Shown here piece after piece: positions 2,068 through 19,264 of a stretch of 64,000 nucleotides of DNA. The notes beneath the pieces were generated by a model. It made no database searches and was not told the DNA's origin. It saw nothing but the letters and a program-made list of their open reading frames with translations. Within the stretch, counting starts at the first letter, position 1. Each line of letters opens with the position of its first letter. A program made the translations under genes and the position numbers. Source of the DNA: Ignavibacteria bacterium (lineage in GTDB: Bacteria; Bacteroidota; Ignavibacteria; UBA10030; SZUA-254); the NCBI GenBank assembly GCA_016178625.1, contig JACOSX010000017.1, forward strand, positions 6,213 through 70,212, in the 5' to 3' direction.

Positions 2068-2208
2068 TTACGACCATAACCGTTACTGCCGACGCGGTGC
2101 AGGGTTGTCATCCGGCAAGATTAAAGGCAAATCACAGCGAGAACTGGCTCGCAGCTCAACAGTCATTTGAGTCGTTAATAACCTCACAATGTTGCTGTCT
2201 GGCGGAAA

Positions 2209-3147: not shown

Positions 3148-4829
3148 GCTAAGCGAATTCTGGAGTACTCATCGAATGAGAGACTTATAACGCTAGACAA
3201 ATCGTCCGACACGGCGGGTATATTCACTCTTGCGGCGATTCCGAGTACTGAATCATGATCGAGATGTGTCAACTCAGGATGCTGTCCCGTCAATCTGTCC
3301 TCGAACCGGAGTAAATAATGCACGTGTGAGGGATTGAAAAAGGGGCGACAATCTTCAACGTCGCTCTGCAGTCTGAACATAATTTGACAATCACCATGCA
3401 CGAGAGTCTTGACAGAATCATCAATATCTGGATCCACAAATACATACATACACCATAATTCTTTGTGCTTCTGAGTGATTGATGATCTTATTTCTTCGGC
3501 CACACGCGAGGGCGCCTTTTCATCTAAAGGGCCAATGATGTGGCCATCGATATTCACTAACGCCTTAACTGCTTTGTATCCCATGCCCTCACCAGGACAA
3601 TAAATTACTACGCTTCCTTCAGGTAGGTCATTTTGTTTCTCAAGTGACCTCTCCGCTTGCCAACGTACTTCTTTTTTGGCAAGACGTTTGCGAAGAGTTT
3701 CCTTATCCGAATAAACTGGATCCTCTCCACTTTCCCCGCCGAACCGCAATCCGTATACAGGTTTGAAAAGCTTGTGTCTTGATAAATTGCTGGTGAGACG
3801 CTTGGCAATGCTGGTGCCTTCATTTTTCATGTACTCTAAAAGCGAGTCATCGGACATCGAATACAACCGGCTTTTATCAATCTTTTCCCTGTGAAACATG
3901 TCAGTTACTGCGGAGATAATCATCGCGGAGCTTGAAATTTTTGCATGGTGAAAATAGACCTTCTCCGCTAATGAATATCTGAGTCTGAGGAGGTGCAGGA
4001 GTTCGGATTGGACATCGCGTCTAATTTTTTTGGTCGACGGTTTGTGCAACCTCAGTACAAGCCGAGGTTTTCCATTATACGTCGTCACGTAAAGGTAGGA
4101 GAGAAATCGATCATCGTACCCCTCTTCAAGTCCACAAAAATAAAGATCCCTCCGGATGTAGTCCAGCAGATCGGCACACAAGGTGTTCCCAATTATATCT
4201 CCAATGAAGGGTCTGACGAGTCCTTCGACAGTGTGTTCCTCGATGGCTTGAATTGTTGCTCTAAGGTCCCGAAGCACCATTATTGGCTCGTATTGCGTGG
4301 CGCCGCTGTTACTCATTCGTTGTAAACTTTCCGATGTCCTAATGATTTGAGCAACCTCGCTCTTATCTCCCAAGAACCTCTCGGTCCGCTCGGCGTCTTT
4401 CCACTGGCTCATCAACAGGCCACCCTCGTCCTCGATTGTATGTCCGAAGGGGATGTGCGCGAGGTCATGCAACAGCGCACTCAGGCGAATCAGAAGATGA
4501 TCGTAATGGTCGATTTTGATATCAGGATATGGATTGCTATTAACCAATCTGACAAGTTTTTCGGCTACATGAAGACACCCAATAGCATGATCAAATCGTG
4601 TATGCATTGCGCATGGATAAACAAGATGCGTAGTACCTAACTGTCGCAGACCACGCAGACGCTGAAAACATTCAGTATCTATAATTCTTACTTCAAGCTC
4701 TGTAAGCATGATATCACCATGCACGGCGTCGCGAATAGTTTTGTGCGGCTTAAATAAACGCTCTAAATGGCCATCGGGATCTGCTTTCTTACTGTCAAAG
4801 ATAGTTGCCTGAGAAATAGATTTTCTCAT
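3144..4829 (-). CDS. SAMHD1-like HD-domain dNTP triphosphohydrolase (dGTPase family)
   Basis: IRDAVHGDIML..RIIDT..FQRLR..QLG, HTRFDHAIG (H..HD), LLHDLAHIPFGH and DLLDYIRRD line up with the conserved blocks of SAMHD1/Dgt/EF1143; 561 aa. Confidence 0.85.
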   Translation of the reverse strand: MRKSISQATIFDSKKADPDGHLERLFKPHKTIRDAVHGDIMLTELEVRIIDTECFQRLRGLRQLGTTHLVYPCAMHTRFDHAIGCLHVAEKLVRLVNSNPYPDIKIDHYDHLLIRLSALLHDLAHIPFGHTIEDEGGLLMSQWKDAERTERFLGDKSEVAQIIRTSESLQRMSNSGATQYEPIMVLRDLRATIQAIEEHTVEGLVRPFIGDIIGNTLCADLLDYIRRDLYFCGLEEGYDDRFLSYLYVTTYNGKPRLVLRLHKPSTKKIRRDVQSELLHLLRLRYSLAEKVYFHHAKISSSAMIISAVTDMFHREKIDKSRLYSMSDDSLLEYMKNEGTSIAKRLTSNLSRHKLFKPVYGLRFGGESGEDPVYSDKETLRKRLAKKEVRWQAERSLEKQNDLPEGSVVIYCPGEGMGYKAVKALVNIDGHIIGPLDEKAPSRVAEEIRSSITQKHKELWCMYVFVDPDIDDSVKTLVHGDCQIMFRLQSDVEDCRPFFNPSHVHYLLRFEDRLTGQHPELTHLDHDSVLGIAARVNIPAVSDDLSSVISLSFDEYSRIRLA

Positions 4830-4995: not shown

Positions 4996-5000
4996 ATTAG

Positions 5001-5327
5001 TTATGTTTTGATTGTGTCTATTTCCACCAAGAATCGTTCGTATTCGTCCTTGGTAAACCAGTCCACCAGCGGCCTCCCGGTGCGGATGAAAGTGAAATTT
5101 CCATCACGCACCAGCACTGGTGGTTTGCTGGGCAGCTCCCATCGGATCGCGAGATAATAGAACTCGATGCGAGTTCCGTCAGAGAGCTTGTGTCTTGCTG
5201 CGATGTCAGCAGTTGCGACTATGCCAGTTGTACCTTTTGGCACGCCTGAGAATGCCACGAGAGTTCGAACTCTTCTTCCGATCTTCGCCAGAGCGGTCTG
5301 CTTGTCAAAGAGCATCTCATTATTCAT
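5001..5327 (-). CDS. hypothetical protein (108 aa) coupled to the SymE-like gene
   Basis: Starts at MNNEMLF with a GGAGG RBS. The ATGAATAA junction overlaps the SymE-like stop; the upstream part of track ORF 5001..5471 is probably not translated. Confidence 0.5.
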   Translation of the reverse strand: MNNEMLFDKQTALAKIGRRVRTLVAFSGVPKGTTGIVATADIAARHKLSDGTRIEFYYLAIRWELPSKPPVLVRDGNFTFIRTGRPLVDWFTKDEYERFLVEIDTIKT

Positions 5328-5583
5328 CGCATACCTCCGTAGATGTTGGACAGATTTTAGTGATGGTGATGCGATCAGGTTCGAGGTTGAGCGTGAACGA
5401 ATCACCGATGTTGAACCCAAAATCCTCAAGGTATTTTCCTCCCAATCGGATGTACGGATGAGGAGAGCCACTCTCGTAATCGTAGTAGCGCGAGCTAACG
5501 GTGCGGCTTCGCGGGATACGTTGATGGTTGTTATCTGATGTCTTGAAGTCTAGCTCGATCATCATTGCCTCGCTTTCCATCAA
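5320..5583 (-). CDS. SymE-like (type I toxin family, AbrB/SpoVT-like fold) protein
   Basis: RYYDY...PHPYIRLGGKYLEDFGFNIGDSF matches the SymE core (Y..Y..P.I.L.GKWLE.AGF..G). ATGA overlap with the DUF932 stop. Confidence 0.6.
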   Translation of the reverse strand: MMESEAMMIELDFKTSDNNHQRIPRSRTVSSRYYDYESGSPHPYIRLGGKYLEDFGFNIGDSFTLNLEPDRITITKICPTSTEVCDE

Positions 5584-6545
5584 TTTCTTGCCTGAACCAT
5601 GTCGAGTGCAAGCTTGAAAGCATCTTTCTTGATTCGCTCTCCTGAGCCGAACCAGATCGACTTCAGACGAGCCGAATCGTCCATGCTCGGCTGGCGATAA
5701 TAGTCCACGTACTCTGTTACTGCATTGTAGGCACTCCAGAGCGTATCTGGAGCGAGGTCGGCTCCTTTGCCGGTATGTGCCAGCTCGAACACCTTCTCTC
5801 GAACCGGATTTTTCCGATGGGGATGTCCGTTGGTAGGGGGATCGGGGAAGACCTTCTTCACGTAGTCGGTTAGCACACGCCCATCGATCCTGATGCTGCT
5901 CATTTGGTTGAAGATGAGGTCGAGTTCCTCGTAGAGCTTGTTAGTGAGCCCGAGAATCTCATGTGCTTCCTTCATCCGTTCAGAGGCATGTGCAGTATGC
6001 CGGATGCGGACTTCCTGTTCCGCACCACTCAAGGCGAGTGACAGAGTATTCTCGCACACGACACGTACAGGAGTCAGTTTGACCCTCACGACGCCGCTTC
6101 CGTCATGCGAGTTGGTGAGAAGCAGAAACTTCTCGACCAAGTCGTTGCCCTTTACACGGATATAGTCAGGCAACTTCGCCAAAAGCCAGATCCGTTCTCC
6201 TTTGCCGAAAGCTCCCGCGGTGTGGTAGATGGCTTCGCCTTCTCCGACCAATGCATCGAAGGTGGTGAAGGCCTGCTCGTTCTGGATCGGTACGTAGCGC
6301 GAGCCAACCACACCGAGCACTTGGTTAGTATCTGCACGTACCGTAGCGAAGTGGCTCTCGACTGGGAGATCAAGTGTCTCGGTCTTGAGCGGAATTTTAT
6401 CAACCGTGAAGCCCAAGCCCGCAGCTTCGATTGCTTCTTGAGCCGTAGCCGGATGGTCGAGCTTGGTGCCGAGCTTGTGCCACGGCACTTCACCGACGTA
6501 CATCATGGCAGCTTTGCCGTTTGTTTCATTGAGATTATGTCCCAT
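5580..6545 (-). CDS. DUF932 family protein (phage/plasmid/ICE associated)
   Basis: 321 aa; the LLLTNSHDGSGVVRVKLTPVRVVCENTL core is typical of DUF932 (TIGR03299-like). Confidence 0.7.
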   Translation of the reverse strand: MGHNLNETNGKAAMMYVGEVPWHKLGTKLDHPATAQEAIEAAGLGFTVDKIPLKTETLDLPVESHFATVRADTNQVLGVVGSRYVPIQNEQAFTTFDALVGEGEAIYHTAGAFGKGERIWLLAKLPDYIRVKGNDLVEKFLLLTNSHDGSGVVRVKLTPVRVVCENTLSLALSGAEQEVRIRHTAHASERMKEAHEILGLTNKLYEELDLIFNQMSSIRIDGRVLTDYVKKVFPDPPTNGHPHRKNPVREKVFELAHTGKGADLAPDTLWSAYNAVTEYVDYYRQPSMDDSARLKSIWFGSGERIKKDAFKLALDMVQARN

Positions 6546-6699
6546 AGTGATATTCTCCTTTCATGGGGTTTGTATTTCTGTTCAGTGAATTGCGTTTAAG
6601 ACAGCAGGCGAAAAGAAAGCCCGTGAAGTTTTTGTATTGCAACCTCACGGGCCTGTTTGAACGTACGATGCAGCGAAGAGTGAGCGTCATCCCGACGTA

Positions 6700-6912
6700 T
6701 CAGGACGAACAAACACCTGCCGCTTCATCGATCGCCTCCCGAAACTTCTCCACGTTCTCACCGAAGACGTTCAGGTACGAGCGTTTCCTCTCCTCGCCGT
6801 CGAATCTCGACTCGCAAATCGAGAGGTACTTGTTGCCGTTCTTCGCTTCCTTCACGTCGATGAAGTAGGTGGATTTTCCTGCCTTGATACTTTTGGAATA
6901 GATTGCGTCCAT
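6700..6912 (-). CDS. PUR-alpha-like (DUF3276-like) single-repeat nucleic-acid-binding protein
   Basis: 70 aa; KAGKSTYFIDVKEAKNGNKYLSI..SR resembles the PUR repeat; AAGGAG RBS. Confidence 0.45.
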   Translation of the reverse strand: MDAIYSKSIKAGKSTYFIDVKEAKNGNKYLSICESRFDGEERKRSYLNVFGENVEKFREAIDEAAGVCSS

Positions 6913-6981
6913 AGGTTTGCTCCTTGGATATTATGGTTAATTGTTGATGGCTTTTCGCCTGTGAATTACTTGAATAGCTGG

Positions 6982-7794
6982 TTAGGCTGATTTCCTCTGC
7001 CACAAGGGGCAGAGATTTGCGTACTCGCACTCCTTGCACCAGAAGCCGGCGCGAGGATAGAAGATTCCTTCGGTGATTGCCTTAAGAACCTGTTCGACGA
7101 GATGGAAGAACACTTCGTAATCTTCATCGACCCGCCGTGTCTCGGTCACTTCGATCCGTGGCTTCTTGTTCTTGATGAAGTTGATGACTTTGAACTTCTT
7201 GGGCGCCCGACCATAGAGACTCTTGAAGGCGTAGCCGTAGGCGGTGAGCTGCAGCATCGATTGGATGTCGAACGAGCTCATGACCTGCGCTGAGGTTTTG
7301 AACTCGACGATGGTGTCGTCGCGCTCCACGATGTCGAAGTACCCCTCCAGGTTTATTCCCAATTCCCTGCCATTCCTAGGATGTACCAACGGTATGACGA
7401 AGGGAATTTCGCTCCCCTTGACTTGAGGGCGTTGCGGATATCTGTGGTACAGTGACATCATTTCTCTCCCCATGACGACGAGTTTCATGTCGTCGTCGCT
7501 ATCCTTGTACCGGATGTCTTCATCGGCTTTCTGGCTGTACCAATCCGTCTCGAAGACCTTGGCGAGCTGTTCCTGAGAAACCTTCGCTCCTGTAAGCTCC
7601 GCCTTGTGAAACCACGACAGAGCCGAGTGGAGCGCGCTGCCGAAGGCAAGCGCGGAAGGGCGGAACGTTCGAGGTATGAGATCTATGTACTGAAACTGGT
7701 ACTTCTGAGGGCATTGGAGGTAGAGCCGTAGTTGGCTGTTGGATAAGTGATCAAGCGGCTGCATGGGATGGCCGACCTCCCTTCGCGTCTTCAA
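6982..7794 (-). CDS. Cas4-like PD-(D/E)xK nuclease (RecB-family, DUF83-like) with a four-Cys cluster
   Basis: D (YFDIV) and E-x-K (VEFKT) motifs; N-terminal LQCP Cys plus C-terminal CKECEYANLC, as in Cas4/AddB Fe-S nucleases. Confidence 0.65.
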   Translation of the reverse strand: MKTRREVGHPMQPLDHLSNSQLRLYLQCPQKYQFQYIDLIPRTFRPSALAFGSALHSALSWFHKAELTGAKVSQEQLAKVFETDWYSQKADEDIRYKDSDDDMKLVVMGREMMSLYHRYPQRPQVKGSEIPFVIPLVHPRNGRELGINLEGYFDIVERDDTIVEFKTSAQVMSSFDIQSMLQLTAYGYAFKSLYGRAPKKFKVINFIKNKKPRIEVTETRRVDEDYEVFFHLVEQVLKAITEGIFYPRAGFWCKECEYANLCPLWQRKSA

Positions 7795-8179
7795 GAAATC
7801 TCTCTATTGCACGGCTCGCTTCGAGCTTGGTGACTTCCTTCAGGGAATTCACCTGAAATTCCTTCTTGAGGCGCTCATGGGCTTGATCGCCTTCGACGCC
7901 TTGATCTGCCAAGAGGCGGAAGAGGAGTCGCTTTTGCGAATCACTCATGTGTGCCTCCACGTTTCCGGAGTTGGGCTTCGCGGATAGATGAGATTTGTCA
8001 TCCTCTTTTTTAGTTGAAGCATTAGACACGACGTGTAGTTTTGCTTCACCGTTATTCCCGCCAAGTTTCACCTGACCGGTTTGTGCAGGTGTGATTTCTG
8101 TCTCCGAGATCGTGACAGTGAACAGCAGGTTACCGCTGGCTGAGCGTACCTCTAGCCTAGCTGCTGGTTGCGGTTGCAT
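7751..8179 (-). CDS. hypothetical protein (142 aa)
   Basis: ORF with an AAAGGAG RBS, first gene of the minus-strand DNA-processing operon; its 3' end overlaps the Cas4-like start. Confidence 0.4.
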   Translation of the reverse strand: MQPQPAARLEVRSASGNLLFTVTISETEITPAQTGQVKLGGNNGEAKLHVVSNASTKKEDDKSHLSAKPNSGNVEAHMSDSQKRLLFRLLADQGVEGDQAHERLKKEFQVNSLKEVTKLEASRAIERFLEDAKGGRPSHAAA

Positions 8180-8338
8180 GTTGTCTTTCTCCTTTCTTGT
8201 GATGTTGTGAATGATCTGTGTTGTCTCTTATCCTCTAGTATTTCTCTAGAGCCGAACTGCTACAAGGCGGGAGAAATTGTCTCTGGCGTAAAGAATGCCC
8301 TACTTCGCTAGCTTCTAGGTTGTGGATATCATGGAAGT

Positions 8339-9664
8339 ATGGATGAACTACGTAATGACAAAGAACCGATCACCCCCTTGGCGGTTACCAATTGGCGAGA
8401 CATCAGACGAACGTTCGGCATCAAGCGGAAGAACCGGCGTGGACACATCTACGTCATTGGCAAGAGCGGGACAGGGAAATCGAGCTTGATGGGTAATATG
8501 GTCATCTCCGATATGGAGCAGGGCTACGGTTTAGCGCTCATCGACCCCCACGGGGATTTGGCTGAAGCTGTACTCACCTACGTGCCGGAAAAGAGACTAG
8601 CCGATGTTATTTATTTCAATCCGGCTGACGTAGCATGCCCGATTGCTTTTAATCCACTAAAGAATGTTGCCCCTGACCAGCGGTACCTCGTGGCCTCAGG
8701 ACTCATTTCCGTATTCAAGAAAATCTGGGCAGAATTCTGGGGACCGCGCTTGGAACACATCCTACGGTTTTCACTCTTGACGCTCTTGGAATATCCACAG
8801 AGCACCTTGCTTGACCTGCCGAGACTGTTGACGGACGCCCAGTTTAGAAAAGAGGTAGTCTCAGGAGTAACCCAGCGTGAGGTACAAGAATTTTGGTCTA
8901 ACGAGTTTGACCGTTATTCGGCCTACTTCAGGTCAGAAGCGGTCGCTCCCATACTCAACAAGATGGGGCAATTCCTCACCAGCCTCCCCTTGAGAAATAT
9001 CGTAGGTCAAAGGCAGACGAGCTTTACCATGCGCGAGGCAATGGATTCTGGGAAAATCCTGATTGCCAATGTATCGAAGGGAAGAATAGGTGAAGATACG
9101 AGCTCGCTCTTGGGGGCGATGCTCGTCACGGAGATTCAGTTAGCTGCCTTGAGCCGAGCCGACACGGAAGAACACCAGCGCAGGCCGTTCTACCTCTACA
9201 TCGATGAGGTACATAATTTCCTCACGACTTCTGTCGCCGACATGCTGTCAGAGAGCAGGAAATTCAACCTTAGCATTACGTGCGCGAATCAATTTACCAA
9301 TCAGTTGGATGACGATGTACGTTCAGCCATTCTCGGCAATGTGGGAACGATAATCTCGTTTCGCGTCGGTCCGGAAGATGCCGAGCTACTCGCCAAGGAG
9401 TTCTCTCCGGTCTTCACTGAATCAGATATCCTCAACCTCCCAAACCATAGCATCTACTTGAAGCTCATGATTGACGGTGTCACCTCCCTACCCTTCAGTG
9501 CCACGACACTCCCTTTGCCTGAGCCCGTATCTTTCTTGGTGGAAAAAATTATCGAAGCTTCACGTAAGCGATATACACGTCCAAGAAAAGAGGTGGAGGC
9601 AGAGATACTGTTGAAGGCCAGGAAAGAACAAAGACGAGAGATCGATCAGCCGAGCCTGTTCTGA
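8339..9664 (+). CDS. TraD/VirD4-like P-loop ATPase (T4SS coupling-protein-like, FtsK/HerA superfamily)
   Basis: Walker A VIGKSGTGKSS, Walker B FYLYIDEVHNF; 441 aa; divergent from the DNA-processing operon. Confidence 0.6.
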   Translation: MDELRNDKEPITPLAVTNWRDIRRTFGIKRKNRRGHIYVIGKSGTGKSSLMGNMVISDMEQGYGLALIDPHGDLAEAVLTYVPEKRLADVIYFNPADVACPIAFNPLKNVAPDQRYLVASGLISVFKKIWAEFWGPRLEHILRFSLLTLLEYPQSTLLDLPRLLTDAQFRKEVVSGVTQREVQEFWSNEFDRYSAYFRSEAVAPILNKMGQFLTSLPLRNIVGQRQTSFTMREAMDSGKILIANVSKGRIGEDTSSLLGAMLVTEIQLAALSRADTEEHQRRPFYLYIDEVHNFLTTSVADMLSESRKFNLSITCANQFTNQLDDDVRSAILGNVGTIISFRVGPEDAELLAKEFSPVFTESDILNLPNHSIYLKLMIDGVTSLPFSATTLPLPEPVSFLVEKIIEASRKRYTRPRKEVEAEILLKARKEQRREIDQPSLF

Positions 9665-9844
9665 ACACGAGCCGCACGGGGTGCAAATCGCCCTAAGGTT
9701 TTGTGTTGCTTTCGATATCAATACTTAGCCATAGTTGACGCCAAAGGAAATTTATCCCGTCATGACTAACACCTCTTGAGACGATATCCTTCTCCTTAGC
9801 TCTTTAACATATCAAACACAATCATAAGAGAAAGGAGAACAGAA

Positions 9845-10111
9845 ATGAACTGCTCGCACTGTGGTCGAGAAGTTACAGGGAGGGTTATCGTTCGAAGCCT
9901 CACCCTTGCTAAGGCACTTCCGGTGGTACAGATGGAATCGACACCGGAGCGTGACTGGATTTGCTGCGATGCCTGCAATACCATCATCTGCCACGACTGC
10001 TGCTGCTACCCGACGAGTGGCTATTGCGATACTTGTATCGAGAAGTACAAGCTCCACGATCACTTAGCTCAGATAGGGCTGATTCCGGGGAGGGAGGATC
10101 ACTGCTTATGA
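9845..10111 (+). CDS. Cys-rich Zn-ribbon-like small protein, copy A
   Basis: 88 aa with CxxC...DWIxCxxC...CxxCCxYPxSGxCxxCI...HLAQIGLIP, paralogous to 10874..11149; AAAGGAG RBS. Confidence 0.6.
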   Translation: MNCSHCGREVTGRVIVRSLTLAKALPVVQMESTPERDWICCDACNTIICHDCCCYPTSGYCDTCIEKYKLHDHLAQIGLIPGREDHCL

Positions 10112-10422
10112 ACACAAATACCCAAAGAGATAGAAGAAACGCTCCTAACGCAAATTTAGGGCTTACAGAAGGCTCTAACTGTGCCACTCGGATGGCCTCC
10201 GAGATGACGATAACACTTGATCCGACTAAGGTAAAAAAGCAGCGAAGAATTCCACGTCTGAGGAAGGTCTACTATGGTTACTATGACCGGGAATTTCAAG
10301 CTCCCCATCCTCTCATTCGTCTCCGTGGCAAATACCTTGAAGATTTCGGGTTCGCGATCGGTGATAAGATTGAGGTCGACTTTCAACCTCACTGCATCAT
10401 CATCACCAAGGTGTTGCCATGA
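10108..10422 (+). CDS. SymE-like protein (second paralog)
   Basis: Starts at MNTNTQ (internal Met of track ORF 9961..10422) behind a GGGAGGGAGGA SD; YYGYYDREFQAPHPLIRLRGKYLEDFGFAIGDKIEV matches the SymE core. ATGA overlaps on both sides. Confidence 0.6.
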   Translation: MNTNTQRDRRNAPNANLGLTEGSNCATRMASEMTITLDPTKVKKQRRIPRLRKVYYGYYDREFQAPHPLIRLRGKYLEDFGFAIGDKIEVDFQPHCIIITKVLP

Positions 10423-10877
10423 AACGCCCCAAAGTGGTATTTGAAACTCCAGTGTACAAGGTGCTGCTGGTGCAGGAGTCGACGGTCGAGGTATCCGAGA
10501 GACAGATCCGAAGTCCGGAAGACGCTGCCAAAATAGTTATGGACTATCTACGAGGTGTCGACCGTGAGCATTTCGTAGGTCTGTACCTCAATTCCGCCAA
10601 TCGGCTCATCGGGATTCACACGATTACGATCGGCATCCTCAACTCGTCGCTGGTTCATCCACGTGAGGTATTCAAGCTTGCTTACATGATGAACGCCGCA
10701 TCGATTATCGTCTCTCACAACCATCCCTCTGGCAATGTTGAACCGTCTAGCGAAGACATTACCCTGACGAAACAGCTTGCTGATGCGGGGAAAATCCTTG
10801 GCATACCTCTTCACGATCACGTAATTGTTACGGAGCAAAACGGTTTCATGAGCTTTGCAGAGAGGGGGTTGTTATGA
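10419..10877 (+). CDS. RadC-like JAB/MPN (DUF2466) protein
   Basis: Complete JAMM motif SHNHPSGNVEPSSED (HxHx7Sx2D); 152 aa. Confidence 0.8.
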   Translation: MKRPKVVFETPVYKVLLVQESTVEVSERQIRSPEDAAKIVMDYLRGVDREHFVGLYLNSANRLIGIHTITIGILNSSLVHPREVFKLAYMMNAASIIVSHNHPSGNVEPSSEDITLTKQLADAGKILGIPLHDHVIVTEQNGFMSFAERGLL

Positions 10878-11149
10878 AATGCGAAGTCTGCGGTCGGGAT
10901 CTGGTTGGTGACATTGTCGTTCGGGACCCGCTGCCGAATGAGAAGGCAAGCATACCAACGCTTGTGCCGATGCCGGAAGAGCGTGATTGGATTTGGTGCA
11001 ATGGCTGCGATCAGATTGTTTTTGTTTGTCACAACTGTTGCTTATGTCCAGTCTCTGGATTCTGCAATGCGTGCATTAATAACTTTAATCTGTCGGAGTA
11101 TCTTGCCCAAGTCGGTTTGATTCCGAAAAGGAAGGGACACTCCATATGA
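10874..11149 (+). CDS. Cys-rich Zn-ribbon-like small protein, copy B
   Basis: 91 aa, about 45% identical to copy A with the same Cys spacing; ATGA overlap with the RadC stop. Confidence 0.6.
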   Translation: MKCEVCGRDLVGDIVVRDPLPNEKASIPTLVPMPEERDWIWCNGCDQIVFVCHNCCLCPVSGFCNACINNFNLSEYLAQVGLIPKRKGHSI

Positions 11150-11245
11150 AAAGCCGGCAAGATCCTCGGGATCCGGCTTCACGATCATATCATCGTCACT
11201 GAACACAACGGGTACACGAGCTTCGCTGAACGAGGCTTGCTGTAG
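11150..11245 (+). pseudogene. RadC C-terminal remnant (31 codons) directly after, and in frame with, Zn-ribbon copy B
   Basis: KAGKILGIRLHDHIIVTEHNGYTSFAERGLL* against the RadC C-terminus DAGKILGIPLHDHVIVTEQNGFMSFAERGLL*. Confidence 0.6.
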
Positions 11246-11458
11246 CTGAAAGCCTAGTGCACAAAACACCGGGCTTTTTTATTGCCCGACTCGTATGGGT
11301 GGATGAACCAAGAATGTTTTCTTGACAGCTTTAGAGGGTTCTGATAGTGTGGGAAACATGGTTGTGAGGAAGTCCCCGCGCCGTTTGAGGCATCCCTTTG
11401 ATTTGTAACCAACAAAAAACAACTTAACAAGCAAAGGGGTTCTCCTAAGGAGGGAAAA

Positions 11459-11611
11459 ATGGAACTTTACTTTTGGGGTTTTGTAGCACTCCTTATCATT
11501 CTTTCGTATGTGTGGATTTACTTCTTCAACAAACTTAACCGAGAGGTGCTAAACCTCGAAGGGCGCATAAGCGAGCTCGAGGGAATTGTGGGGAAGGCAA
11601 CAAAACAATAA
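11459..11611 (+). CDS. small single-TM protein (50 aa)
   Basis: ORF MELYFWGFVALLIILSYVWIYFF... with an AAGGAGGG RBS; below the 60-aa track cutoff. Confidence 0.35.
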   Translation: MELYFWGFVALLIILSYVWIYFFNKLNREVLNLEGRISELEGIVGKATKQ

Positions 11612-11649
11612 TGAAAACCAGGGGCTTCAGCCTGTTTCTCAACTCCAAC

Positions 11650-11681
11650 GTCATGAAAAGCGTTGGAGTTTTATTAACTCC
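11650..11681. terminator. 10-bp perfect hairpin (AACTCCAACG/CGTTGGAGTT) between convergent genes
   Basis: Inverted repeat between the end of the small ORF (+) and the end of the UbiA gene (-). Confidence 0.4.
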
Positions 11682-11684
11682 AAC

Positions 11685-12530
11685 CTACAGTAATATCGCA
11701 GGTACCAGACAGAGAAAAGCGAACCGTGTCAACAGCAAAAAACGCTCAATGCCTAATGCACTCGGCTGAGACCGGCAAAGTACTATACCTATCCAGAGTA
11801 ATAAATTTAATAAAACGCCAACAAATAGTGTGAACCACACAGTACTCCACATTATTGAAGAGACTATGAACAAAAGTGAGCTGACCCCGAACAGATATAT
11901 ACATATGTCCAAAGCTCGTTCAATTCCAAGGCGGATCGGCACCGATGTTTTTCCGATCGACTTGTCAGCGAGGAGATCCCTAATATCTAAGACAATCTCC
12001 CGTCCGAATATCATAAAGAAAGTGCCTCCTGCTGCTATCATCAACGGCAGTGAGAAAGTTCCAATACTCATACCAAATACGATGGTCAGGGAACTACTCA
12101 CGGCAGTGATACCGTTTGCCCAGATTCCATACCTGTTATTCACAAAGGAGTAGATGCTTAACAGTAGAACTGTTCCAACATCAACCAGGAGCGCCGTGGT
12201 GTTAAGATTGAACGAAAGAAAAATCGAAGCTGCAGCAAACAAGAACGCTATAAATAACGCTTGTTTCTTGGACAACCTACCACTCACCAGCGCACGATCA
12301 GGATGGTTGATCCTATCCTTCTCTGTGTCAACGCAATCATTTACAACAAACCCGAATCCAGAAGTCAGCAGGATAACCGCGAAGCCGCAGAAAGCTGTTT
12401 TCAAGGAACCAACTGAGGCAGTAGCCAGATAGACACTTGCTCCAATAATTCCCGCTACCGAGGAGACGAACAACCGAAGTGTTGAGATGACCGCCGTCGA
12501 CGTTGTAATGACGCTATTAGTCATCACCAT
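11685..12530 (-). CDS. UbiA-family prenyltransferase
   Basis: NDCVDTEKDRINHPDRAL (NDxxDxxxD) and multiple TM helices. Confidence 0.7.
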   Translation of the reverse strand: MVMTNSVITTSTAVISTLRLFVSSVAGIIGASVYLATASVGSLKTAFCGFAVILLTSGFGFVVNDCVDTEKDRINHPDRALVSGRLSKKQALFIAFLFAAASIFLSFNLNTTALLVDVGTVLLLSIYSFVNNRYGIWANGITAVSSSLTIVFGMSIGTFSLPLMIAAGGTFFMIFGREIVLDIRDLLADKSIGKTSVPIRLGIERALDICIYLFGVSSLLFIVSSIMWSTVWFTLFVGVLLNLLLWIGIVLCRSQPSALGIERFLLLTRFAFLCLVPAILL

Positions 12531-13377
12531 TCTCCTTTGGATTAGATTTGGCGTACTCGTTAAGGTCTACCAACACATCGTGGAAGCTTAGGTGCTTCAT
12601 TAAAACTTCCTGGTAGGCAGTATAAATGGCAAGAAGAAGTCCAATAAAAATTACTCCGTAAGAAAGAGTATTATTATTGTCCGTAGCTTCTGTCCAACCT
12701 CCGTACAACAATTTGACCTCTTTCTTGAGCGAAACCACAGCGGAAGAATCTTTTGCAATAGCGCTCGAATCCTGGGCAATAATCTGGTCAATCGTACCAC
12801 TAGCAGCATTATATACAGACGATGCTTGCTCTTTAGAAAAGGCAAGCATTTTCCCTCCATCCACCTTCCAACTAAGCCACAGTATAAGTAATGAAACACA
12901 ACTGTAGACTATAAGAATTTTTTCAAAATACTTTACTGCGTTCTTGCCGTAGCCTTCCGTTTTAGAATCGAAGTAGAGCTGCACCGACTTTGTAGCAATG
13001 CATACAATGCCAATTCCTACCAGCAAAAACCTGGGGCGCGAAAAAACGTTAACTCCCAGAAGTCCAAGCTGTGCAATTAGTAATCCGACCGAAAAGATTG
13101 TTCCACGTATATTCTCTCTCATCCTTCTCAAAATCTTGAAGTAGAATCGCAAACTTTGCGCGGCAAGGATTACAACAATAATAGAGACAATCGCTGCTTT
13201 GACCAGTACGCCTTCAGGAGAGGGCACTTCCACTATAGAAAGATCGTGAACTAATGGGACCGCCGTCGCAAAGGCACAACCTATAACAACACCTACTGTC
13301 ATGCCCCTGTTTTCCCTTGTAACCTTCGTCAACTCCGGAAAACTATCCAGCTCATGCTTTGACTTCGTTTCGTTCAA
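12517..13377 (-). CDS. hypothetical integral membrane protein
   Basis: Several hydrophobic helices; overlaps the UbiA start by 14 nt, so probably one operon. Confidence 0.5.
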   Translation of the reverse strand: MNETKSKHELDSFPELTKVTRENRGMTVGVVIGCAFATAVPLVHDLSIVEVPSPEGVLVKAAIVSIIVVILAAQSLRFYFKILRRMRENIRGTIFSVGLLIAQLGLLGVNVFSRPRFLLVGIGIVCIATKSVQLYFDSKTEGYGKNAVKYFEKILIVYSCVSLLILWLSWKVDGGKMLAFSKEQASSVYNAASGTIDQIIAQDSSAIAKDSSAVVSLKKEVKLLYGGWTEATDNNNTLSYGVIFIGLLLAIYTAYQEVLMKHLSFHDVLVDLNEYAKSNPKENGDD

Positions 13378-13806
13378 GATGGGATCCTCACAAAGTTTTT
13401 AGATGGTAAAGATATTGAATTTTCTACTTCAATTCAAACTTCAATTCAAGCCGAAGTGAGGTTAGCAAACCACATTTTGATAAGCAAGAGCAATGCCGTA
13501 AACTCGATTGGTTCTGGACACACCCTCGCTGTTGCGAGGCCCTCAGCCCTCCGTAACAGACAGCCACGCTTCCTGCGGGGCTGTCTGCACCCCTGATCCG
13601 ATCGCACCCGGAACGTTCAACGCAGGTAAAACTGGATTGCATAGCGGTTGTGTGTTTGATCCGCTCAGCGACTAAGCCATGCGTTGTGGCGTTCCCTGCG
13701 ATGAGGTGTGCCATTGGGCTCCAACGAGGTTGGCAGGGGTGGAAATATCTTGAACGAACTAGGGATAGAAAGCAAAGGTTGTCGTTCGTTAGTTTGGATG
13801 TAGGGC

Positions 13807-14598
13807 TTAGAATAATTTGTACAAGTGTGACGGCTGGGGAATTTCTTTTATTTGAATGTGTTGGATTAATTTCTCAAGCTTATCCATGAAGGCGTGGAAA
13901 TCATCATGACGATCGACCGCGAAGCCCCAGTAAAACGATAGATTGTGTCCCAGAGAATAGGACTTGCCCTGCACGAGTTGAATATCCATCCAAGTGAGGT
14001 TAAACCAATTATCACGAAGCACCCCGTTTAACTGAATGATGGTTTCAGCATCGAGGTATCCTGCATAAGTACTGAGGGTAGAGATAAGCTCATTGTTAGC
14101 ACTCTGCGCTTGATCTGTAAGAAACTGTGAGACGTAGGGATATTCTAAGCCAAGATATGCCCGCCACGATGAATCGTATAAGGGCACTTGCGACCTCACG
14201 TCTATCTGGCCGAGACTGGAAATAAAAGATGAGTCCAATATCCTTTTGAAAAGGGCAATAAAGGTAAAACTGCTATCCCATTCAGAAGTGGACATGGGTT
14301 TGGTTCTGTTTACTGCATTAATCGAAAAAACGAGATGTCCAATTCCTTGGGCAATCTCATGATATGCGATTTGGCGGACTGTGTCTCTCTGTCTTTCTTG
14401 CCACTCGGAATGCCGGCGATTTTCATTGGAGGAAAGGACAGAAAGGATAGCAATAGTAACAGCAGTTAGAAGAGCAATTCTCCCCACTAGAGTAAGTCTT
14501 CTAAGACCCCTTTTTTGGGAGTTCCATGTATTACCTACAATCCCGACCACAGCAGTGACAAGGCCGGCCAAGTGCAAAAGCAAATCCCTATCAATCAA
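13807..14598 (-). CDS. hypothetical membrane-anchored protein (2 N-terminal TM helices plus a roughly 200-aa soluble domain)
   Basis: 263-aa ORF directly downstream of the TIR gene. Confidence 0.5.
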   Translation of the reverse strand: MIDRDLLLHLAGLVTAVVGIVGNTWNSQKRGLRRLTLVGRIALLTAVTIAILSVLSSNENRRHSEWQERQRDTVRQIAYHEIAQGIGHLVFSINAVNRTKPMSTSEWDSSFTFIALFKRILDSSFISSLGQIDVRSQVPLYDSSWRAYLGLEYPYVSQFLTDQAQSANNELISTLSTYAGYLDAETIIQLNGVLRDNWFNLTWMDIQLVQGKSYSLGHNLSFYWGFAVDRHDDFHAFMDKLEKLIQHIQIKEIPQPSHLYKLF

Positions 14599-14779
14599 AG
14601 CAGGCCCACGGGTGTACTACTATCTGCGTAGAGCCAAATTGGTTCAAGGATCCGATTGACTTGTTGGAAGTCAAACGTGTCGGCGTGAGTGAACATGAGC
14701 GCTTTCCGGATCCTCGAATGGTTGCGAACTTCCTTCAATGGTTTACGTCTGAATTGGTAGGGCATAAAGATTTACATCT

Positions 14780-15250
14780 TTAGCTCTTAGATGAGAGTAT
14801 AGCGATGCCAATGAGTACGCCAAGTGCTATCAGAAGTGCTCGGTCGTTCTCTTTCGCCATCCTGAGACGCTGAAGATAAGAGAGCAATGTCGATAAACTG
14901 CCAGGGGGATTGCCGAAGTCAAATGGGTTGTACTCTCGACCTTGTAGCATCGCTAAGCTTCGATCCGGTATACCAGGTTGAACGAGCGGAATGATCAACT
15001 TACCAGAGGCTTCTGCAAAACCGACTTCTTGTTGAACGTAAGGAGAGAGATGACTGGTAAGCGTGAGAAGAACTACAACCGCATCGGCGACTTGAATGGC
15101 TTGCTTTACCTTTCCAGCGAGTAAGGTTCCGGGCTGCGGATCGTGCTCAAACAGATATGTTTCTATCCCAATGCTTGTAGCATTAGACGCGATCCACTTA
15201 ACCCACTCTGAATCGCTGGCACTGTGACTGAGGAAAACTTTGTAACCCAT
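14780..15250 (-). CDS. TIR-domain protein with a C-terminal transmembrane anchor
   Basis: KVFLSHSASD N-terminal TIR motif and conserved Glu in YVQQEVGFA; C-terminal ALLIALGVLIGIAILSS helix; 156 aa. Confidence 0.7.
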   Translation of the reverse strand: MGYKVFLSHSASDSEWVKWIASNATSIGIETYLFEHDPQPGTLLAGKVKQAIQVADAVVVLLTLTSHLSPYVQQEVGFAEASGKLIIPLVQPGIPDRSLAMLQGREYNPFDFGNPPGSLSTLLSYLQRLRMAKENDRALLIALGVLIGIAILSSKS

Positions 15251-15433
15251 TCGATAAGGGGACCTGTTTTGTTTCGCTAATTATACGGATTGCGACCGCG
15301 AAACGCAAGTGGAGAAACTAGATTTTGAAAAACAGTGACGTTCGAGAGAGTGGGGAATTAGTGCTGTCGCACTCTTAGCAGACGGAAGGCGACATCGAGG
15401 AGTTTAGCTAACCTGTTGGAATGAGTTGAGTGT

Positions 15434-15793
15434 TCAGTACCTCCGTCCACCTGACCTCATAGAACCAAACATCCGCGGGAGAAATCTGGGTCGAAAAGGA
15501 CGATGAATAAAGACCCGCCGATGGAACGGCGTAACAAGCGATACACCGAACCGTCTGCACCCAAATGAAGGACGGTAAAATGGCGCCGGGTAAAAATAAG
15601 GTCTAGGGTAGTATGGCCCCCCACCACCGTAATAGTTATTAATGACCACTTGTTTCGAGGAGTCTTGATCTGTGGAATATTCCTTGGCTTGCGCCAACAT
15701 CACCCCTGAAGCAACGACCCAAATTGCCCCTGCGCTAAACACGAGCAGCATATTCCTTCTCACTTGCATTGCTCTGTTTAATTTGTATTGCAT
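15434..15793 (-). CDS. secreted Gly/Pro/Tyr-rich hypothetical protein
   Basis: Signal-peptide-like N-terminus (likely start at MQVRRNMLL); low-complexity YYGGGGPYYPRPYFYPAPFYRP. Confidence 0.4.
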   Translation of the reverse strand: MQYKLNRAMQVRRNMLLVFSAGAIWVVASGVMLAQAKEYSTDQDSSKQVVINNYYGGGGPYYPRPYFYPAPFYRPSFGCRRFGVSLVTPFHRRVFIHRPFRPRFLPRMFGSMRSGGRRY

Positions 15794-16101
15794 TGTTAGT
15801 CCGTCAAGAATTTCAACAAAAGTCGTGCCGAGAAAATTTTCGATTCATGAGGGGGGCAAAGCGGAATTAGACCAAACAATGCGTGTTAGAGAGAGGACAA
15901 CGCGGAGTGCTGTGTATCAAAAAGGGGACTTTTAGTTTATGGTAAAGTGTGCTGGCTAGACTCACTTGGCTGTCGAAAGATACGGAGAAAAGAAGATTTT
16001 TCAAGGATTGCACGAACCAAAAATGCTGGGGTTCGTTGACGTGAAGTAAGGGAGTGAACGTGTCGCACTATCAGACGGAAAGCGACAGGTAGCTTCGGAA
16101 T

Positions 16102-16452
16102 TCATACGCTCAGTACTTTGATGACAACACTGAGCAGCTCCTCTGGGTCATACGGCTTGGTGATGTAGTCATTCGCTCCAAGCTTTATGCACTCAAGCGC
16201 TGTTGAGATGTCCCGCATCACCGTGAGCATGATTACCCTCGGATGCTTATGAACTTTTTGCATCTCCTTAAGCACGGCCAAGCCATTCATCCGACGCATC
16301 TTCATATCGAGCAAAACAATATCGTAGTCAAGCTGCTTGATTTTCTCTAGGGCAACATCGCCATCATCTGCCACGTCCACCACAAAGTCTTCATTGGTGA
16401 ACTGCTCATAGAGTGACTGTCTCAATTCCACACTATCATCAACCACGAGCAT
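16102..16452 (-). CDS. stand-alone CheY-like response regulator receiver
   Basis: VVDDS...D...LLDMKM...K receiver signature; 116 aa. Confidence 0.8.
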   Translation of the reverse strand: MLVVDDSVELRQSLYEQFTNEDFVVDVADDGDVALEKIKQLDYDIVLLDMKMRRMNGLAVLKEMQKVHKHPRVIMLTVMRDISTALECIKLGANDYITKPYDPEELLSVVIKVLSV

Positions 16453-16522
16453 TTTTGGTTTTACCGTACGACTCTCCGATGGCGTAATGAAACAGAGCTA
16501 TCGTATACTGCCTTCGTTTGCC

Positions 16523-16888
16523 TCACGATGAAATCCGCTCGATTGTTGCCAGGAGGTCCTGGATGTCGTACGGTTTGCTGATAAAATCTTCGGCACCATA
16601 CTGCTTCGCTTCCATGGCTTGTTTGAGGTCAGCAAAAGCGGTCAGCATGATCACCTTCGTCTCGGGGCTTTGCTGCTTGATGAACCTCAGTACCTCCAAG
16701 CCGTCAACCATCGGCATGCGCACGTCGAGGATTGCAAGGTCAAAGTGTTCACCTTGGACGAGGGCTATGGCTTCACCACCACCGGCAGCGGTGGTGACCT
16801 CATAGCCAGCAGCCGAGAGCACGTCGCTCAAGGTACTCCTGATGTTCTCCTCATCATCAACTATGAGGAGGTGAAGGTTGTGAGCCAT
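16523..16888 (-). CDS. stand-alone CheY-like response regulator receiver
   Basis: LIVDDEENIR, ILDVRMP and KP receiver signature; 121 aa. Confidence 0.8.
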   Translation of the reverse strand: MAHNLHLLIVDDEENIRSTLSDVLSAAGYEVTTAAGGGEAIALVQGEHFDLAILDVRMPMVDGLEVLRFIKQQSPETKVIMLTAFADLKQAMEAKQYGAEDFISKPYDIQDLLATIERISS

Positions 16889-17053
16889 CCGTTATTGTTC
16901 GTACTGTCTAGTAAACGATTGGAGAGTGAACGGCATAAAAATACGAAAGAAAGTTACGAATTCCAAGCGATATTTTGTTGCAGACGTACTTTTAAATGGA
17001 AGGCAACAAGAAGGCTCGGAAATTTTCCGAGCCTTCTCCAGTTCATGGGAATA

Positions 17054-17206
17054 CCTCTACTTACCACAGGCTCGATAGTCTGGGCAGGCCGGGGTTCCGC
17101 ACAAGGGACAACCCCCTCGATCAACCTTGGGGCTTGTTCCGGAGAACCCTAACGCAGTGACCACCAGTGCAAGCACGGTAAGCAGCAGCGTGAGTTTCTG
17201 TTTCAT
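17054..17206 (-). CDS. small secreted Cys-rich peptide (50 aa), start overlaps the CsoR-family stop (ATGA)
   Basis: MKQKLTLLLTVLALVVTALGFSGTSPKVDRGGCPLCGTPACPDYRACGK; signal peptide plus CxxC and CxxxxxC; not in the ORF track. Confidence 0.4.
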
Positions 17207-17658
17207 CGTTTCATCTCCTTTCGAGGTTTTGGTTGTTGTACGGCGTTCAGTGAATTACGCAACCAGGCGAGCTCGTCGATGAGCCCCTTGAGATCCAACT
17301 TGGAAAATTCGTGACGTAAAAACTGCAATCGCTCAGCGTCATCGCAGTCCCCAGGACAGAGAGCGAGCCGTTCGGTGAGCACTTCAGCAAAATGTGCCTT
17401 GAGGTGGTCATTCAGGACGACGTAGAGAGCTTGATGGAGCCCTCGCTCAGCAGCTTTGAGTTGTCCATAGATTTCCTTCACTGACCGATCGCTGGTCATC
17501 ATTCGCTCAATGCCGTCGAGCTGACCTTTGACGAAGTGGATACGTTTGAGAAGCTCTCGTTTTTCTTTCTGACCAAGTGGCGGACGATCATTTTTCACGT
17601 TAGCAATGTAAGAACGTACAGGGGTGTTTGTCAAATTCTTAGGTGAAAGGCAACGCAC
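17203..17658 (-). CDS. CsoR/RcnR/FrmR family (DUF156) transcriptional regulator with atypical ligand residues and a C-terminal CPGDC
   Basis: LLKRIHFVKGQLDGIERMM helix typical of the family; the canonical Cys/His ligand positions are not conserved. Confidence 0.55.
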   Translation of the reverse strand: MRCLSPKNLTNTPVRSYIANVKNDRPPLGQKEKRELLKRIHFVKGQLDGIERMMTSDRSVKEIYGQLKAAERGLHQALYVVLNDHLKAHFAEVLTERLALCPGDCDDAERLQFLRHEFSKLDLKGLIDELAWLRNSLNAVQQPKPRKEMKR

Positions 17659-18192
17659 TCAGGCAGGGGCAACAGCGGGGGTAATTGATTTCACAAATGA
17701 GTTCACATCCCCGAGGCAGCATTCGCCCTTGGGATTCTTGATGTCGCAGGCGCAGTTGCCGGCTTTGACTTCTTTAGCAATCTGCAGGGAGGCTGTTGAT
17801 TTTCCTGTGCTGACGAGCTCTTGTTTGATTCGGGCGCGCGTCCAATCGAAGCAATAGCAGACGCTCACATCTTCGCCCTTGTCCTTCGCGAAAGCCTTAA
17901 CCCTAACATCATCGATGGTGAAATATGGAACACTTTCATTGGAGAAGTAGACAACTCTACAGTTCGAATCAGCGCAGTAATAGTATTGCACGTTTTGAAT
18001 TGAGCCAATTTTTTCGGGCTTCAAGAGATGCTCAAGGGTACGCTTTTGTACCTTCTTCGAGACCGTTCGTGAAACCGGACACTGGGCTCGTGCAGGGGCA
18101 GGAGTGGTATCCGTGACTAAACAACACTCATCACCGACTTTATGTTTATCTTCTGCAATTACCTCGATCGGTTGGACGCAGCAGTTATTCAT
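17659..18192 (-). CDS. vicinal-cysteine-rich hypothetical protein (CC, CxxC, CYC, CAC, CC motifs)
   Basis: Starts at MNNCCVQP (internal Met of track ORF 17659..18264), directly after the MerT-like stop. Confidence 0.45.
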   Translation of the reverse strand: MNNCCVQPIEVIAEDKHKVGDECCLVTDTTPAPARAQCPVSRTVSKKVQKRTLEHLLKPEKIGSIQNVQYYYCADSNCRVVYFSNESVPYFTIDDVRVKAFAKDKGEDVSVCYCFDWTRARIKQELVSTGKSTASLQIAKEVKAGNCACDIKNPKGECCLGDVNSFVKSITPAVAPA

Positions 18193-19247: not shown

Positions 19248-19264
19248 ATCCTATATTCTTTCAT

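Follow-up and report, generated by a model that had tools for sequence, protein, structure and literature searches.

What kind of genetic unit is it in which two small cysteine-rich genes enclose a SymE-like gene and a RadC gene, with the tail of a second RadC gene directly behind them? The question is raised by a module in a DNA stretch of 64,000 nucleotides (nt) from an Ignavibacteria metagenome-assembled genome (assembly GCA_016178625.1, contig JACOSX010000017.1, positions 6,213 to 70,212 of the forward strand), hereafter called the window, with its first letter as position 1. The four genes are called CysA, SymE-like, RadC1 and CysB, the family of the two cysteine-rich proteins is called the Cys family, and the tail is called the RadC remnant (Table 1); the loci and proteins compared with them carry the prefixes L and P. 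The anatomy and the evolutionary reading of the module can be given with good confidence: CysB and the remnant are best read as the left end of a decayed mobilizable element of the Cys-primase-RadC type found in L005, from which approximately 1.3 kb has probably been lost. When this anatomy is joined with the role of a zinc adaptor proposed below for the Cys protein, the combined explanation is the best one reached here, with a probability of roughly 0.55.

Organization of the Module

The four open reading frames (ORFs) lie exactly at the coordinates where a first-pass annotation, made from the letters of the window, had placed them, and they are joined by stop/start overlaps of the form ATGA at 10108-10111, 10419-10422 and 10874-10877. 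As predicted from these overlaps, coupled reading frames run through the whole Cys-SymE-RadC-CysB unit. Approximately 70 nt on the 5′ side of the CysA start codon are conserved in an alignment of the window, L001 and L016, and the terminator at the other end, which a strict consensus scan missed, folds at −13.4 kcal/mol. Bounded by a terminator-like hairpin after the upstream ATPase gene and by the terminator after the remnant, the stretch from CysA to the remnant has the predicted layout of one transcription unit.

CysA and CysB are annotated as the hypothetical proteins HYR76_01170 and HYR76_01185. The paralogy claimed for them at first pass is borne out by an alignment over the full length (E = 1e-26), though with a measured identity of 41% instead of about 45%. 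Their ORFs had been taken as coding, and this also stood: between CysA and its 78%-identical ortholog in L001, the proportion of non-synonymous differences (pN) is 0.11 and that of synonymous differences (pS) is 0.71, which means strong purifying selection on a coding gene. No further RadC or Cys copy was found in a search of the 64 kb window.

Origin of the RadC Remnant

Translation of the remnant gives KAGKILGIRLHDHIIVTEHNGYTSFAERGLL followed by the stop codon, in the frame of CysB and directly after the CysB TGA, as had been claimed for the last 31 RadC codons. The further claim that the remnant is nearly identical to the intact RadC holds for the protein, where 25 of 30 residues agree with the end of RadC1 (E = 3e-17), but not for the DNA. 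Over the 96 nt, the identity to RadC1 is 68%, versus 90% to L005, 90% to L040, 84% to L016 and 83% to L039, while the RadC1 and L005 genes share 73% of their nucleotides. The likeness to L005 goes on beyond the stop codon, that is, window positions 11151-11282 (remnant and terminator) match L005 7121-7252 with 86% identity over 132 nt. The codon differences between the remnant and L005 comprise 7 synonymous and 2 non-synonymous ones; since the divergence is mostly synonymous, most of it arose while selection still acted on the gene, and the truncation is young by comparison. A start codon is lacking in the remnant and the breakpoint falls downstream of the catalytic motif, so that the catalytic domain is incomplete. 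In these comparisons, the remnant is no copy of RadC1 and appears to be the RadC 3′ end of a second element.

The junction can be read on both sides. Its left side corresponds to the overlap of the Cys stop and the primase start in L005 (ATGAAAAAAAA) and to the primase start in L040 (ATGAAAAAGAA), and its right side corresponds to RadC from nt 364-366 onward. The ATG at 11146 now opens only an out-of-frame ORF of 18 codons. Measured on L005, about 1.31 kb is missing, namely the primase and 121 RadC codons. The first-pass view that the remnant is a genuine 3′ end of RadC, produced by a deletion, is upheld.

In the model of the first-pass annotation, an in-situ duplication of an ancestral unit of Zn-ribbon and RadC was followed by a recent deletion of part of the second copy. 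Two Cys genes and two RadC sequences do stand in tandem in the same orientation, and a direct Cys-RadC pair exists in L019. However, CysA and CysB are no more than 41% identical, with a pS of 0.71 near saturation, the nearest relative of CysB is not CysA, the remnant is closer to the RadC genes of four other elements (83-90%) than to RadC1, and it is followed by the terminator and the downstream block of those other elements. A recent duplication in situ is contradicted by these values and the model as a whole is very unlikely; the two Cys/RadC units are either old paralogs or derived from different elements. An even smaller chance, close to nil, is left for an assembly chimera of two elements that co-occurred in the metagenome: the window does come from a metagenome-assembled genome, and related elements with a similar RadC exist in nature, but the two sides of the junction share at most 2 nt, the two RadC sequences at 68% identity appear to offer no long exact word for a mis-join, and L016 independently shows the same decayed-element architecture downstream.

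One idea about the TGA between CysB and the remnant was rejected, namely a readthrough or recoding of this codon that would fuse CysB to the remnant; CysA, SymE-like and RadC1 all end in a functional TGA within the ATGA overlaps, and for the shared frame the chance expectation is one in three.

The 3′ end of RadC may also be of interest in itself. In five RadC genes (L005, L040, L016, L039 and L019), the identity at third codon positions is 0.72 in codons 137-153, versus about 0.4 elsewhere; the conserved 3′ block, codons ~122-153, lies at 11150-11245 in the window, 7120-7215 in L005, 5956-6051 in L016 and 6364-6459 in L040, and is also present in L039. A hairpin in it, AGCTTCG-CTGAA-CGAGGCT, needs particular synonymous codons, which are kept in the related RadC genes, whereas the 3′ end of RadC1 (10782-10877) has neither the synonymous-site conservation nor the hairpin. 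Moreover, the identity between the L005 and L016 RadC genes rises from about 61% (a hand count from the alignment) to 91% at nt ~362, and this mosaic boundary of L016 falls within about 4 nt of the window junction, at the upstream edge of the conserved block. It could be argued from the synonymous conservation, the coinciding boundary and the codon-dependent hairpin that the RadC tail has been kept because its DNA acts in cis, be it as a recombination or att-like site, as a priming site or through an RNA structure. This explanation is unlikely, as the sequences are only five and the onset of conservation differs between pairs, the folding z-scores are not significant in L005, L016 and L040, no second, att-like copy was found in any locus, and the L016 boundary could also stem from homologous recombination between tandem copies of RadC. 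The synonymous conservation over the last 50-100 nt is thus a lead from five sequences only. The viral contigs scanned for the conserved RadC 3′ sequence contained none. The remnant was also considered as the att-site duplicate of an element integrated in RadC, which was rejected because the window and all other loci have no second copy of the block.

A Probable Decayed Second Element

Besides Cys, a DnaG-type primase and RadC, an element of the L005/L040 type has a terminator, a conserved non-coding block and genes for a relaxase, a coupling protein, ParA, a methylase and an integrase, and parts of this set can be found behind the remnant. The conserved non-coding block is 220-270 nt long and always lies 3′ of the RadC terminator (L005 7272-7535, L040 6516-6780, L016 7135-7405), adjoining it directly in L005 and L040; in the window, a 2.2 kb insertion with a UbiA gene and a membrane-protein gene separates it from the terminator. 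The block has no Rfam match, and its long predicted hairpins have no covariation support; it is a candidate origin of transfer (oriT) or other cis site of the L005-type element. An example of its hairpins is ACAGACAGCCACGC...GCGTGGCTGTCTG.

Further downstream, the last ~50 codons of a Replic_Relax relaxase are found at 14595-14744 (50-53% identity by tblastn) and the first 12 codons of an L005-type tyrosine integrase at 14730-14765 (75% identity by tblastn), and the homology of each stub was shown by sequence comparison. The same pair of stubs occurs at 8259-8662 in L016, with an integrase stub of 67 codons. This pair seems to be what is left of a mobilizable element that lost its backbone by deletion.

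The order of events that we infer is as follows. Most simply, the ancestral operon would be the triad of CysA, SymE-like and RadC, as in L016. A mobilizable element of the L005/L040 type would have come to lie behind this operon, where it decayed. An illegitimate deletion of about 1.3 kb in the window would have taken the primase and the first 121 RadC codons, joining the CysB stop to RadC codon 122, and further deletions would have cut the relaxase and the integrase to stubs, while cargo genes were inserted. In L016, which has a single RadC, two RadC copies may have recombined into one.

As side observations on the insertion, it carries on the minus strand (11685-13377) a UbiA-family prenyltransferase and a multi-pass membrane protein of 286 amino acids (aa) without a family; at the same position L016 has a DUF1579 gene and L005 has nothing.

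Table 1. Coordinates of the module and of the features around it in the window.
Feature	Position	Strand	Remarks
CysA	9845..10111	+	88 aa; eight-cysteine (4 x CxxC) predicted two-zinc finger, undescribed family
SymE-like (AbrB-fold) protein	10108..10422	+	ORF of 104 aa; PF08845 match
RadC1	10419..10877	+	152 aa; JAB-only RadC; PF04002 match
CysB	10874..11149	+	91 aa; divergent CysA paralog
Deletion junction	11146..11155	+	ATGAAAA/GCC (reads on ATGAAAA/GCCGGC)
RadC remnant	11150..11245	+	apparent last 31 codons and stop of a second, L005/L040-type RadC
Intrinsic terminator	11248..11283	+	hairpin and U-run; common to L005, L040, L001
Conserved non-coding block	13513..13785	+	follows the RadC terminator in L005, L040; 79-87% nt identity to L005, L040/41, L016/17
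Relaxase and integrase stubs	14595..14765	-	tblastn
Intergenic region before CysA	9678..9844	+	terminator-like hairpin 9678-9694, then conserved upstream block and ribosome-binding site AAGGAG
Soluble TrwB/HerA-like P-loop ATPase	8339..9664	+	directly upstream of the Cys operon
PD-(D/E)XK (Cas4-like) nuclease and 142-aa protein	6982..8179	-	divergent from the ATPase; syntenic in L001, L016
DUF932 gene (5580-6545) and second SymE-like gene (5320-5583)	5320..6545	-	DUF932 3.3e-60; TIGR03299

The Cys Family

The Cys proteins are an undescribed family, rare and patchy, and known only from uncultured bacteria. A word-indexed search of 5.8 billion proteins gave 9 clusters, and a HMMER profile search of 1.84 billion cluster representatives gave 91 clusters, 62 of them below 1e-10; the members are mostly 70-115 residues long. 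The two proteins had been described as belonging to no recognised family, and this was confirmed, in that none of 97 family members has a Pfam match. The Cys proteins tested have no match in NCBIfam, PADLOC or PHROG, tblastn found no CysA homolog in 72,556 plasmids and 50,697 phages, and a DNA search of the region against the plasmids gave no match. A search of the PDB with the sequence profile returned nothing (E above 0.09), and Foldseek with the Cys model returned no significant match in the PDB and BFVD.

In the nine closest members, C3, C6, C41, C44, C49, C52, C61 and C64 are invariant. Across the 97 members, C6 and C44 remain invariant, C3, C41, C52, C61 and C64 are conserved in at least 90%, and C49 in less than 90%; G12, R36, I39, P56 and G59 are also conserved. 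The label "Zn-ribbon" given at first pass is too simple; eight conserved cysteines in four CxxC knuckles point to a two-zinc module. The AlphaFold2 model built from the family alignment has a predicted local distance difference test (pLDDT) score of 93.8 and shows a long beta-hairpin at the N terminus, helices at the C terminus and short strands at the knuckles. CysB is an orphan whose best relative is only 43% identical, yet it keeps all family-invariant residues and has a unique insertion of 2 residues; its AlphaFold2 model reaches a pLDDT of 79, with 84-93 in the zinc-knuckle core and 53-69 in the N-terminal hairpin.

A compact finger holding two zinc ions is predicted for the family, with only a loose likeness to FYVE/PHD fingers. 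The cross-brace two-zinc fingers used for comparison were FYVE, rabphilin/RIM, PHD and RING. With the FYVE, PHD and RING fingers the Cys family has in common eight zinc ligands in four pairs, and a cross-brace pairing (1+3, 2+4) is suggested by fold matches only. The differences are that neither the FYVE signature R(R/K)HHCR nor the PHD signature C4HC3 occurs in the Cys family alignments, and that the 97 members have no Pfam match to FYVE, PHD or RING.

Longer members of the family are tandem copies or carry extra CxxC mini-domains, and the fusions give no functional clue. Five of them (P0016, P0020, P0021, P0032 and P0041) have two tandem eight-cysteine domains in one polypeptide, which echoes the two separate copies in the window. 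In L030, a CxxC mini-protein of 71 aa (3551-3766) lies directly 3′ of the Cys gene; with 48% identity (E = 2e-13), it is homologous to the domain that P0040 carries at the N terminus, in fusion with its Cys domain; the N-terminal domain of P0027 resembles that of P0040 by eye only. The gene-fusion link between L030 and P0040 appears to connect two small zinc-finger families.

The SymE-like Protein and RadC1

The SymE-like assignment is confirmed by a match to PF08845 (SymE_toxin) with 1.2e-10 and 41.7 bits, above the gathering cut-off of 29. Against the NCBIfam SymE equivalog, the score of 27 bits is far from the cut-off of 132, and orthology to E. coli SymE is not supported. The conserved SymE core begins at about residue 29-33 (about 10192-10204), and the orthologs in L001 and L016 have 71 aa. 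The spacer of about 100 nt that parts the two cores, Cys and SymE, belongs to SymE as an N-terminal extension in the window, forms a separate 42-codon ORF in L001 and extends the Cys protein at its C terminus in L016; in all three orthologous loci it lies within a reading frame that is open and overlapping. At 10108, the ATGA is an overlap at the ORF level, and its ATG is a putative rather than an established start.

E. coli SymE is a type I toxin with an AbrB fold. The window protein has the same domain (PF08845), but it is coupled inside a protein operon, whereas E. coli SymE is a solitary gene opposed by an antisense RNA (SymR). Rfam gave no match in 5000-21000, and the weak sigma-70-like site on the antisense strand (10299-10271) is within the chance expectation of a scan whose promoter rules do not cover this phylum.

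RadC1 matches PF04002 with 4e-44 and 149.8 bits (threshold 22.1) and TIGR00608 with 139.5 bits (cut-off 133.85). Its JAMM motif HNHPSGNVEPSSED (HxHx7SxxD), read from the translation, is intact, and the metal-binding motif E...HxHx7SxxD is present as HPRE... plus SHNHPSGNVEPSSED; the Pfam match and the intact motif together substantiate the earlier assignment as a RadC JAMM protein. The closest relative is P0099 with 85% identity. Against NF000642, the equivalog of the chromosomal RadC, which is a full-length protein of about 212-224 aa that has a helix-hairpin-helix region at its N terminus, RadC1 scores 149.9 bits with a cut-off of 180 and covers profile positions 87-211 only; the helix-hairpin-helix region is absent from RadC1. 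In this, RadC1 is like the short JAB-only RadC of mobile elements, since at 152 aa it is full-length for this form, has the intact motif and lies in an accessory region near DUF932. E. coli YeeS, YkfG and YfjY are presumably such short JAB-only forms with a DUF932 neighbourhood. A coupled Cys-rich leader gene was found in no described RadC context.

The combination of a RING-like finger with a JAB protein was also considered as a ubiquitin-like system; this was rejected, because no E1, E2 or ubiquitin-like genes are nearby. RadC has been described as lacking the groove for the ubiquitin tail (PMC5512222).

Gene Neighbourhoods of the Family

The neighbourhoods of approximately 24 distinct Cys loci were surveyed, and all informative loci recovered carry mobile-element genes. 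The Cys gene frequently opens a coupled pair; the partners differ, among them SymE-like proteins, RadC, DnaG primase and other small CxxC proteins. The order Cys, SymE-like, RadC occurs in the window and L016; in L001, Cys and SymE-like are followed by a 9-codon RadC stub and a replacement gene. Cys is followed by a DnaG-type primase and RadC in L005, by RadC with a direct ATGA overlap in L019, by a CHC2 primase finger in L021, and by unrelated small proteins, several of them CxxC-rich, in L006, L022-L024, L029, L030 and L037. DUF2958 precedes Cys in L014 and L036, and DUF932 is directly beside it in L012, L013, L015, L022, L024, L035 and L038. The commonest neighbour is a soluble TrwB/HerA-like ATPase, which lies directly upstream of Cys in the window, L001, L016, L015, L030 and L034, and nearby in L014 and L035.

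RadC or a RadC stub stands within two genes of Cys in about 6 of the 24 loci. The 152-aa RadC clade counts at least 120 clusters, compared with 9 Cys clusters in the same database, and the closest RadC relatives sampled, with primase-RadC-SymE in L039 and primase-RadC in L040/L041, have no Cys gene by tblastn. The idea that Cys is a conserved partner of RadC did not survive these counts, although coupling of the two does occur elsewhere, directly in L019, through SymE in L016 and through the primase in L005. The Cys gene is a facultative member of the gene set, and RadC is a frequent, optional partner.

The RadC slot is a hot spot for gene replacement. In L001 (~3922-3950), only the first 9 RadC codons are kept after the SymE-like gene (ATGAAGCGCGGCAGGGTGGTATTTGAAA, MKRGRVVFE); an unrelated 253-aa gene comes next, ahead of the terminator that the window also has.

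The survey also bears on whether the module could be a toxin-antitoxin or abortive-infection module, with the SymE-like protein as the toxin, neutralised by the upstream Cys protein in the antitoxin position or by RadC. The SymE_toxin domain is above the Pfam threshold, and a small upstream gene coupled to a variable downstream gene resembles the shuffling of type II systems. Nevertheless, Cys is paired with SymE in only 3 of the ~24 loci, SymE-like genes are also coupled to DUF932, or placed after RadC in L039, with no Cys, and other Cys partners, a 318-aa primase and RadC, are not toxins. As CysA, CysB, SymE-like and RadC have no PADLOC match, and the SymE-like protein falls far short of the cut-off set for the E. 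coli SymE equivalog, this reading is quite improbable.

Proposed Function of the Cys Protein

It is tentatively proposed from gene context and literature that the Cys protein is a zinc-dependent adaptor in an establishment or accessory operon of mobile elements. It would bind DNA or a partner protein and work with whichever nucleic-acid enzyme is translationally coupled to it, the candidates being the RadC JAB hydrolase, the DnaG-type primase or CHC2 finger, and the SymE/AbrB-fold protein. In this way, the adaptor would help the element to process or prime its DNA and to establish itself after transfer.

RadC JAB domains fused to DnaG-type primases, ArdC and DinG helicases have been described, and a role in nucleic-acid processing has been proposed (PMC3239186); the primase-RadC link in L005, L039 and L040 parallels these DnaG-RadC fusions. 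RadC and DnaG-primase domains are specific to the polyvalent proteins of conjugative elements, which convert incoming single-stranded DNA to double-stranded DNA (PMC5512222). The repertoire near the Cys family, with DnaG-type primase, RadC, orphan methylases, DUF932, DUF2958, relaxase and coupling protein, matches the concept of establishment or leading-region sets in conjugative elements, which comprise primases, ArdC, RadC, ssDNA methylases and anti-defence genes (cf. PMC5512222). An establishment or accessory operon is favoured by this literature on RadC and DnaG together with the gene context. The island of the window differs in having lost its relaxase.

A similar small protein is DUF3085, which is reported to be a frequent neighbour of RadC in plasmids of broad host range, and for which a complex with RadC is predicted (PMC12826799). 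The likeness lies in being a small, RadC-adjacent protein of undescribed function; DUF3085 is a different family, as none of the 97 Cys members matches it, and the Cys family is absent from sequenced plasmids.

Several points speak against the combined explanation, that is, decayed element plus zinc adaptor. The event order could be either a tandem cassette followed by deletion, as set out above, or the insertion of a RadC-3′/CysB piece into RadC at codon 122. The ATGA junction of RadC1 and CysB has no counterpart in any other of the ~24 loci. Establishment after transfer is extrapolated from the relatives with relaxase and coupling protein (L005, L019, L039 and L041), and no conjugation machinery was identified in the annotated part of the window (~1-29 kb), which keeps the relaxase and integrase stubs plus a serine recombinase. 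Lastly, the partners are heterogeneous, many of them small proteins without a known family, and one shared mechanism is not assured.

Two other functions were weighed against the adaptor. The Cys protein might be a small zinc-finger transcription regulator of accessory operons, like anti-CRISPR-associated regulators, since it is small, predicted to bind metal and often encoded by the first gene after a conserved upstream region. There is little probability in this, as Cys genes also occur in internal, coupled positions (after DUF2958 in L014 and L036, and CysB after RadC1), and no helix-turn-helix or other known DNA-binding fold was detected in the Cys protein. Cross-brace fingers, moreover, usually bind proteins or lipids. 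The Cys protein might also be an anti-defence factor that inhibits a host immune protein, one more among the numerous small, variable anti-defence genes of mobile elements, a view that overlaps with the adaptor explanation. The family is rare and patchy, and its neighbours (DUF932, DUF2958, orphan N6/N4 methylases, RadC and primase) are typical of anti-restriction or leading regions. Plasmid leading regions are reported to show an enrichment of anti-defence genes (PMC11541004). Against this, the Cys protein has no similarity to a known anti-defence protein and no target is suggested, which leaves the view doubtful.

A more far-reaching pair of linked readings, which is speculative and rather improbable, would cast the Cys protein as a zinc-finger partner with the dedicated task of recruiting or regulating RadC-type JAB enzymes, DnaG-type primases and SymE/AbrB proteins on incoming mobile-element DNA, and would make the last ~100 nt of RadC (from codon ~122 on) a cis-acting recombination or priming site for cassette exchange. 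If the Cys protein were a dedicated RadC partner, it would be the first experimental handle on the RadC of mobile elements.

Among the genes of plasmids, integrative elements and prophages that still await an explanation, those for RadC-like JAB proteins belong to the commonest. The Cys family offers a hypothesis for a binding partner, namely a confidently modelled zinc finger repeatedly coupled to RadC, primase and TrwB/HerA-like ATPase. The locus also illustrates the turnover of cassettes, in that three related elements show three states of one slot, intact in L016, with RadC replaced and a 5′ stub left in L001, and with a second cassette cut to a 3′ stub in the window. The module is a variant of a mobile-element accessory operon and no new category of system; its chief value is that a rare, undescribed zinc-finger family has been recognised where mobile elements carry RadC, primase and ATPase genes. 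Because the family is rare (91 clusters in 1.84 billion) and known only from uncultured bacteria, its practical reach is limited.

The Island around the Module

The module is best explained as the distal part of an accessory block, which consists of the DUF932-SymE pair, the nuclease, the ATPase and then the separately terminated Cys-SymE-RadC operon. The ATPase matches Pfam TrwB_AAD_bind (1.9e-13) plus DUF87, and phrog_5156 (5.7e-58). The second SymE-like protein is 54% identical to the first, and its gene shares a TTGATG overlap with the DUF932 stop, with no Cys gene involved.

The surrounding 28 kb resembles an integrated island with a LexA-like S24 protein, an AEP primase, an IrrE/M78 peptidase, an HD protein, DUF932, the PD-(D/E)XK nuclease, the TrwB/HerA-like ATPase, a TIR protein and metal-resistance genes. 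At its left, 242-4829 holds the LexA-like S24 peptidase/repressor, the AEP-type primase, the IrrE/M78 peptidase (a weak capP-like match) and the HD protein (a weak dGTPase-like match), and looks like another accessory or defence-like cluster. Within the decayed-element region, a stand-alone TIR-domain protein is encoded at 14780-15250 (minus strand); adjoining it in the same region is a metal-resistance cluster at 16523-19654 (minus strand), with a response regulator, a CsoR-like repressor, a CopZ zinc-finger protein, a MerT-like transporter and an ArsR regulator. Finally, at 26645-29228, a large serine recombinase (Resolvase, Recombinase and Zn_ribbon_recom domains) overlaps the end of a truncated comM-like Mg-chelatase gene of 372 aa, whose Mg_chelatase domain is cut at position 158 of 207, and this suggests that the island is integrated in comM.

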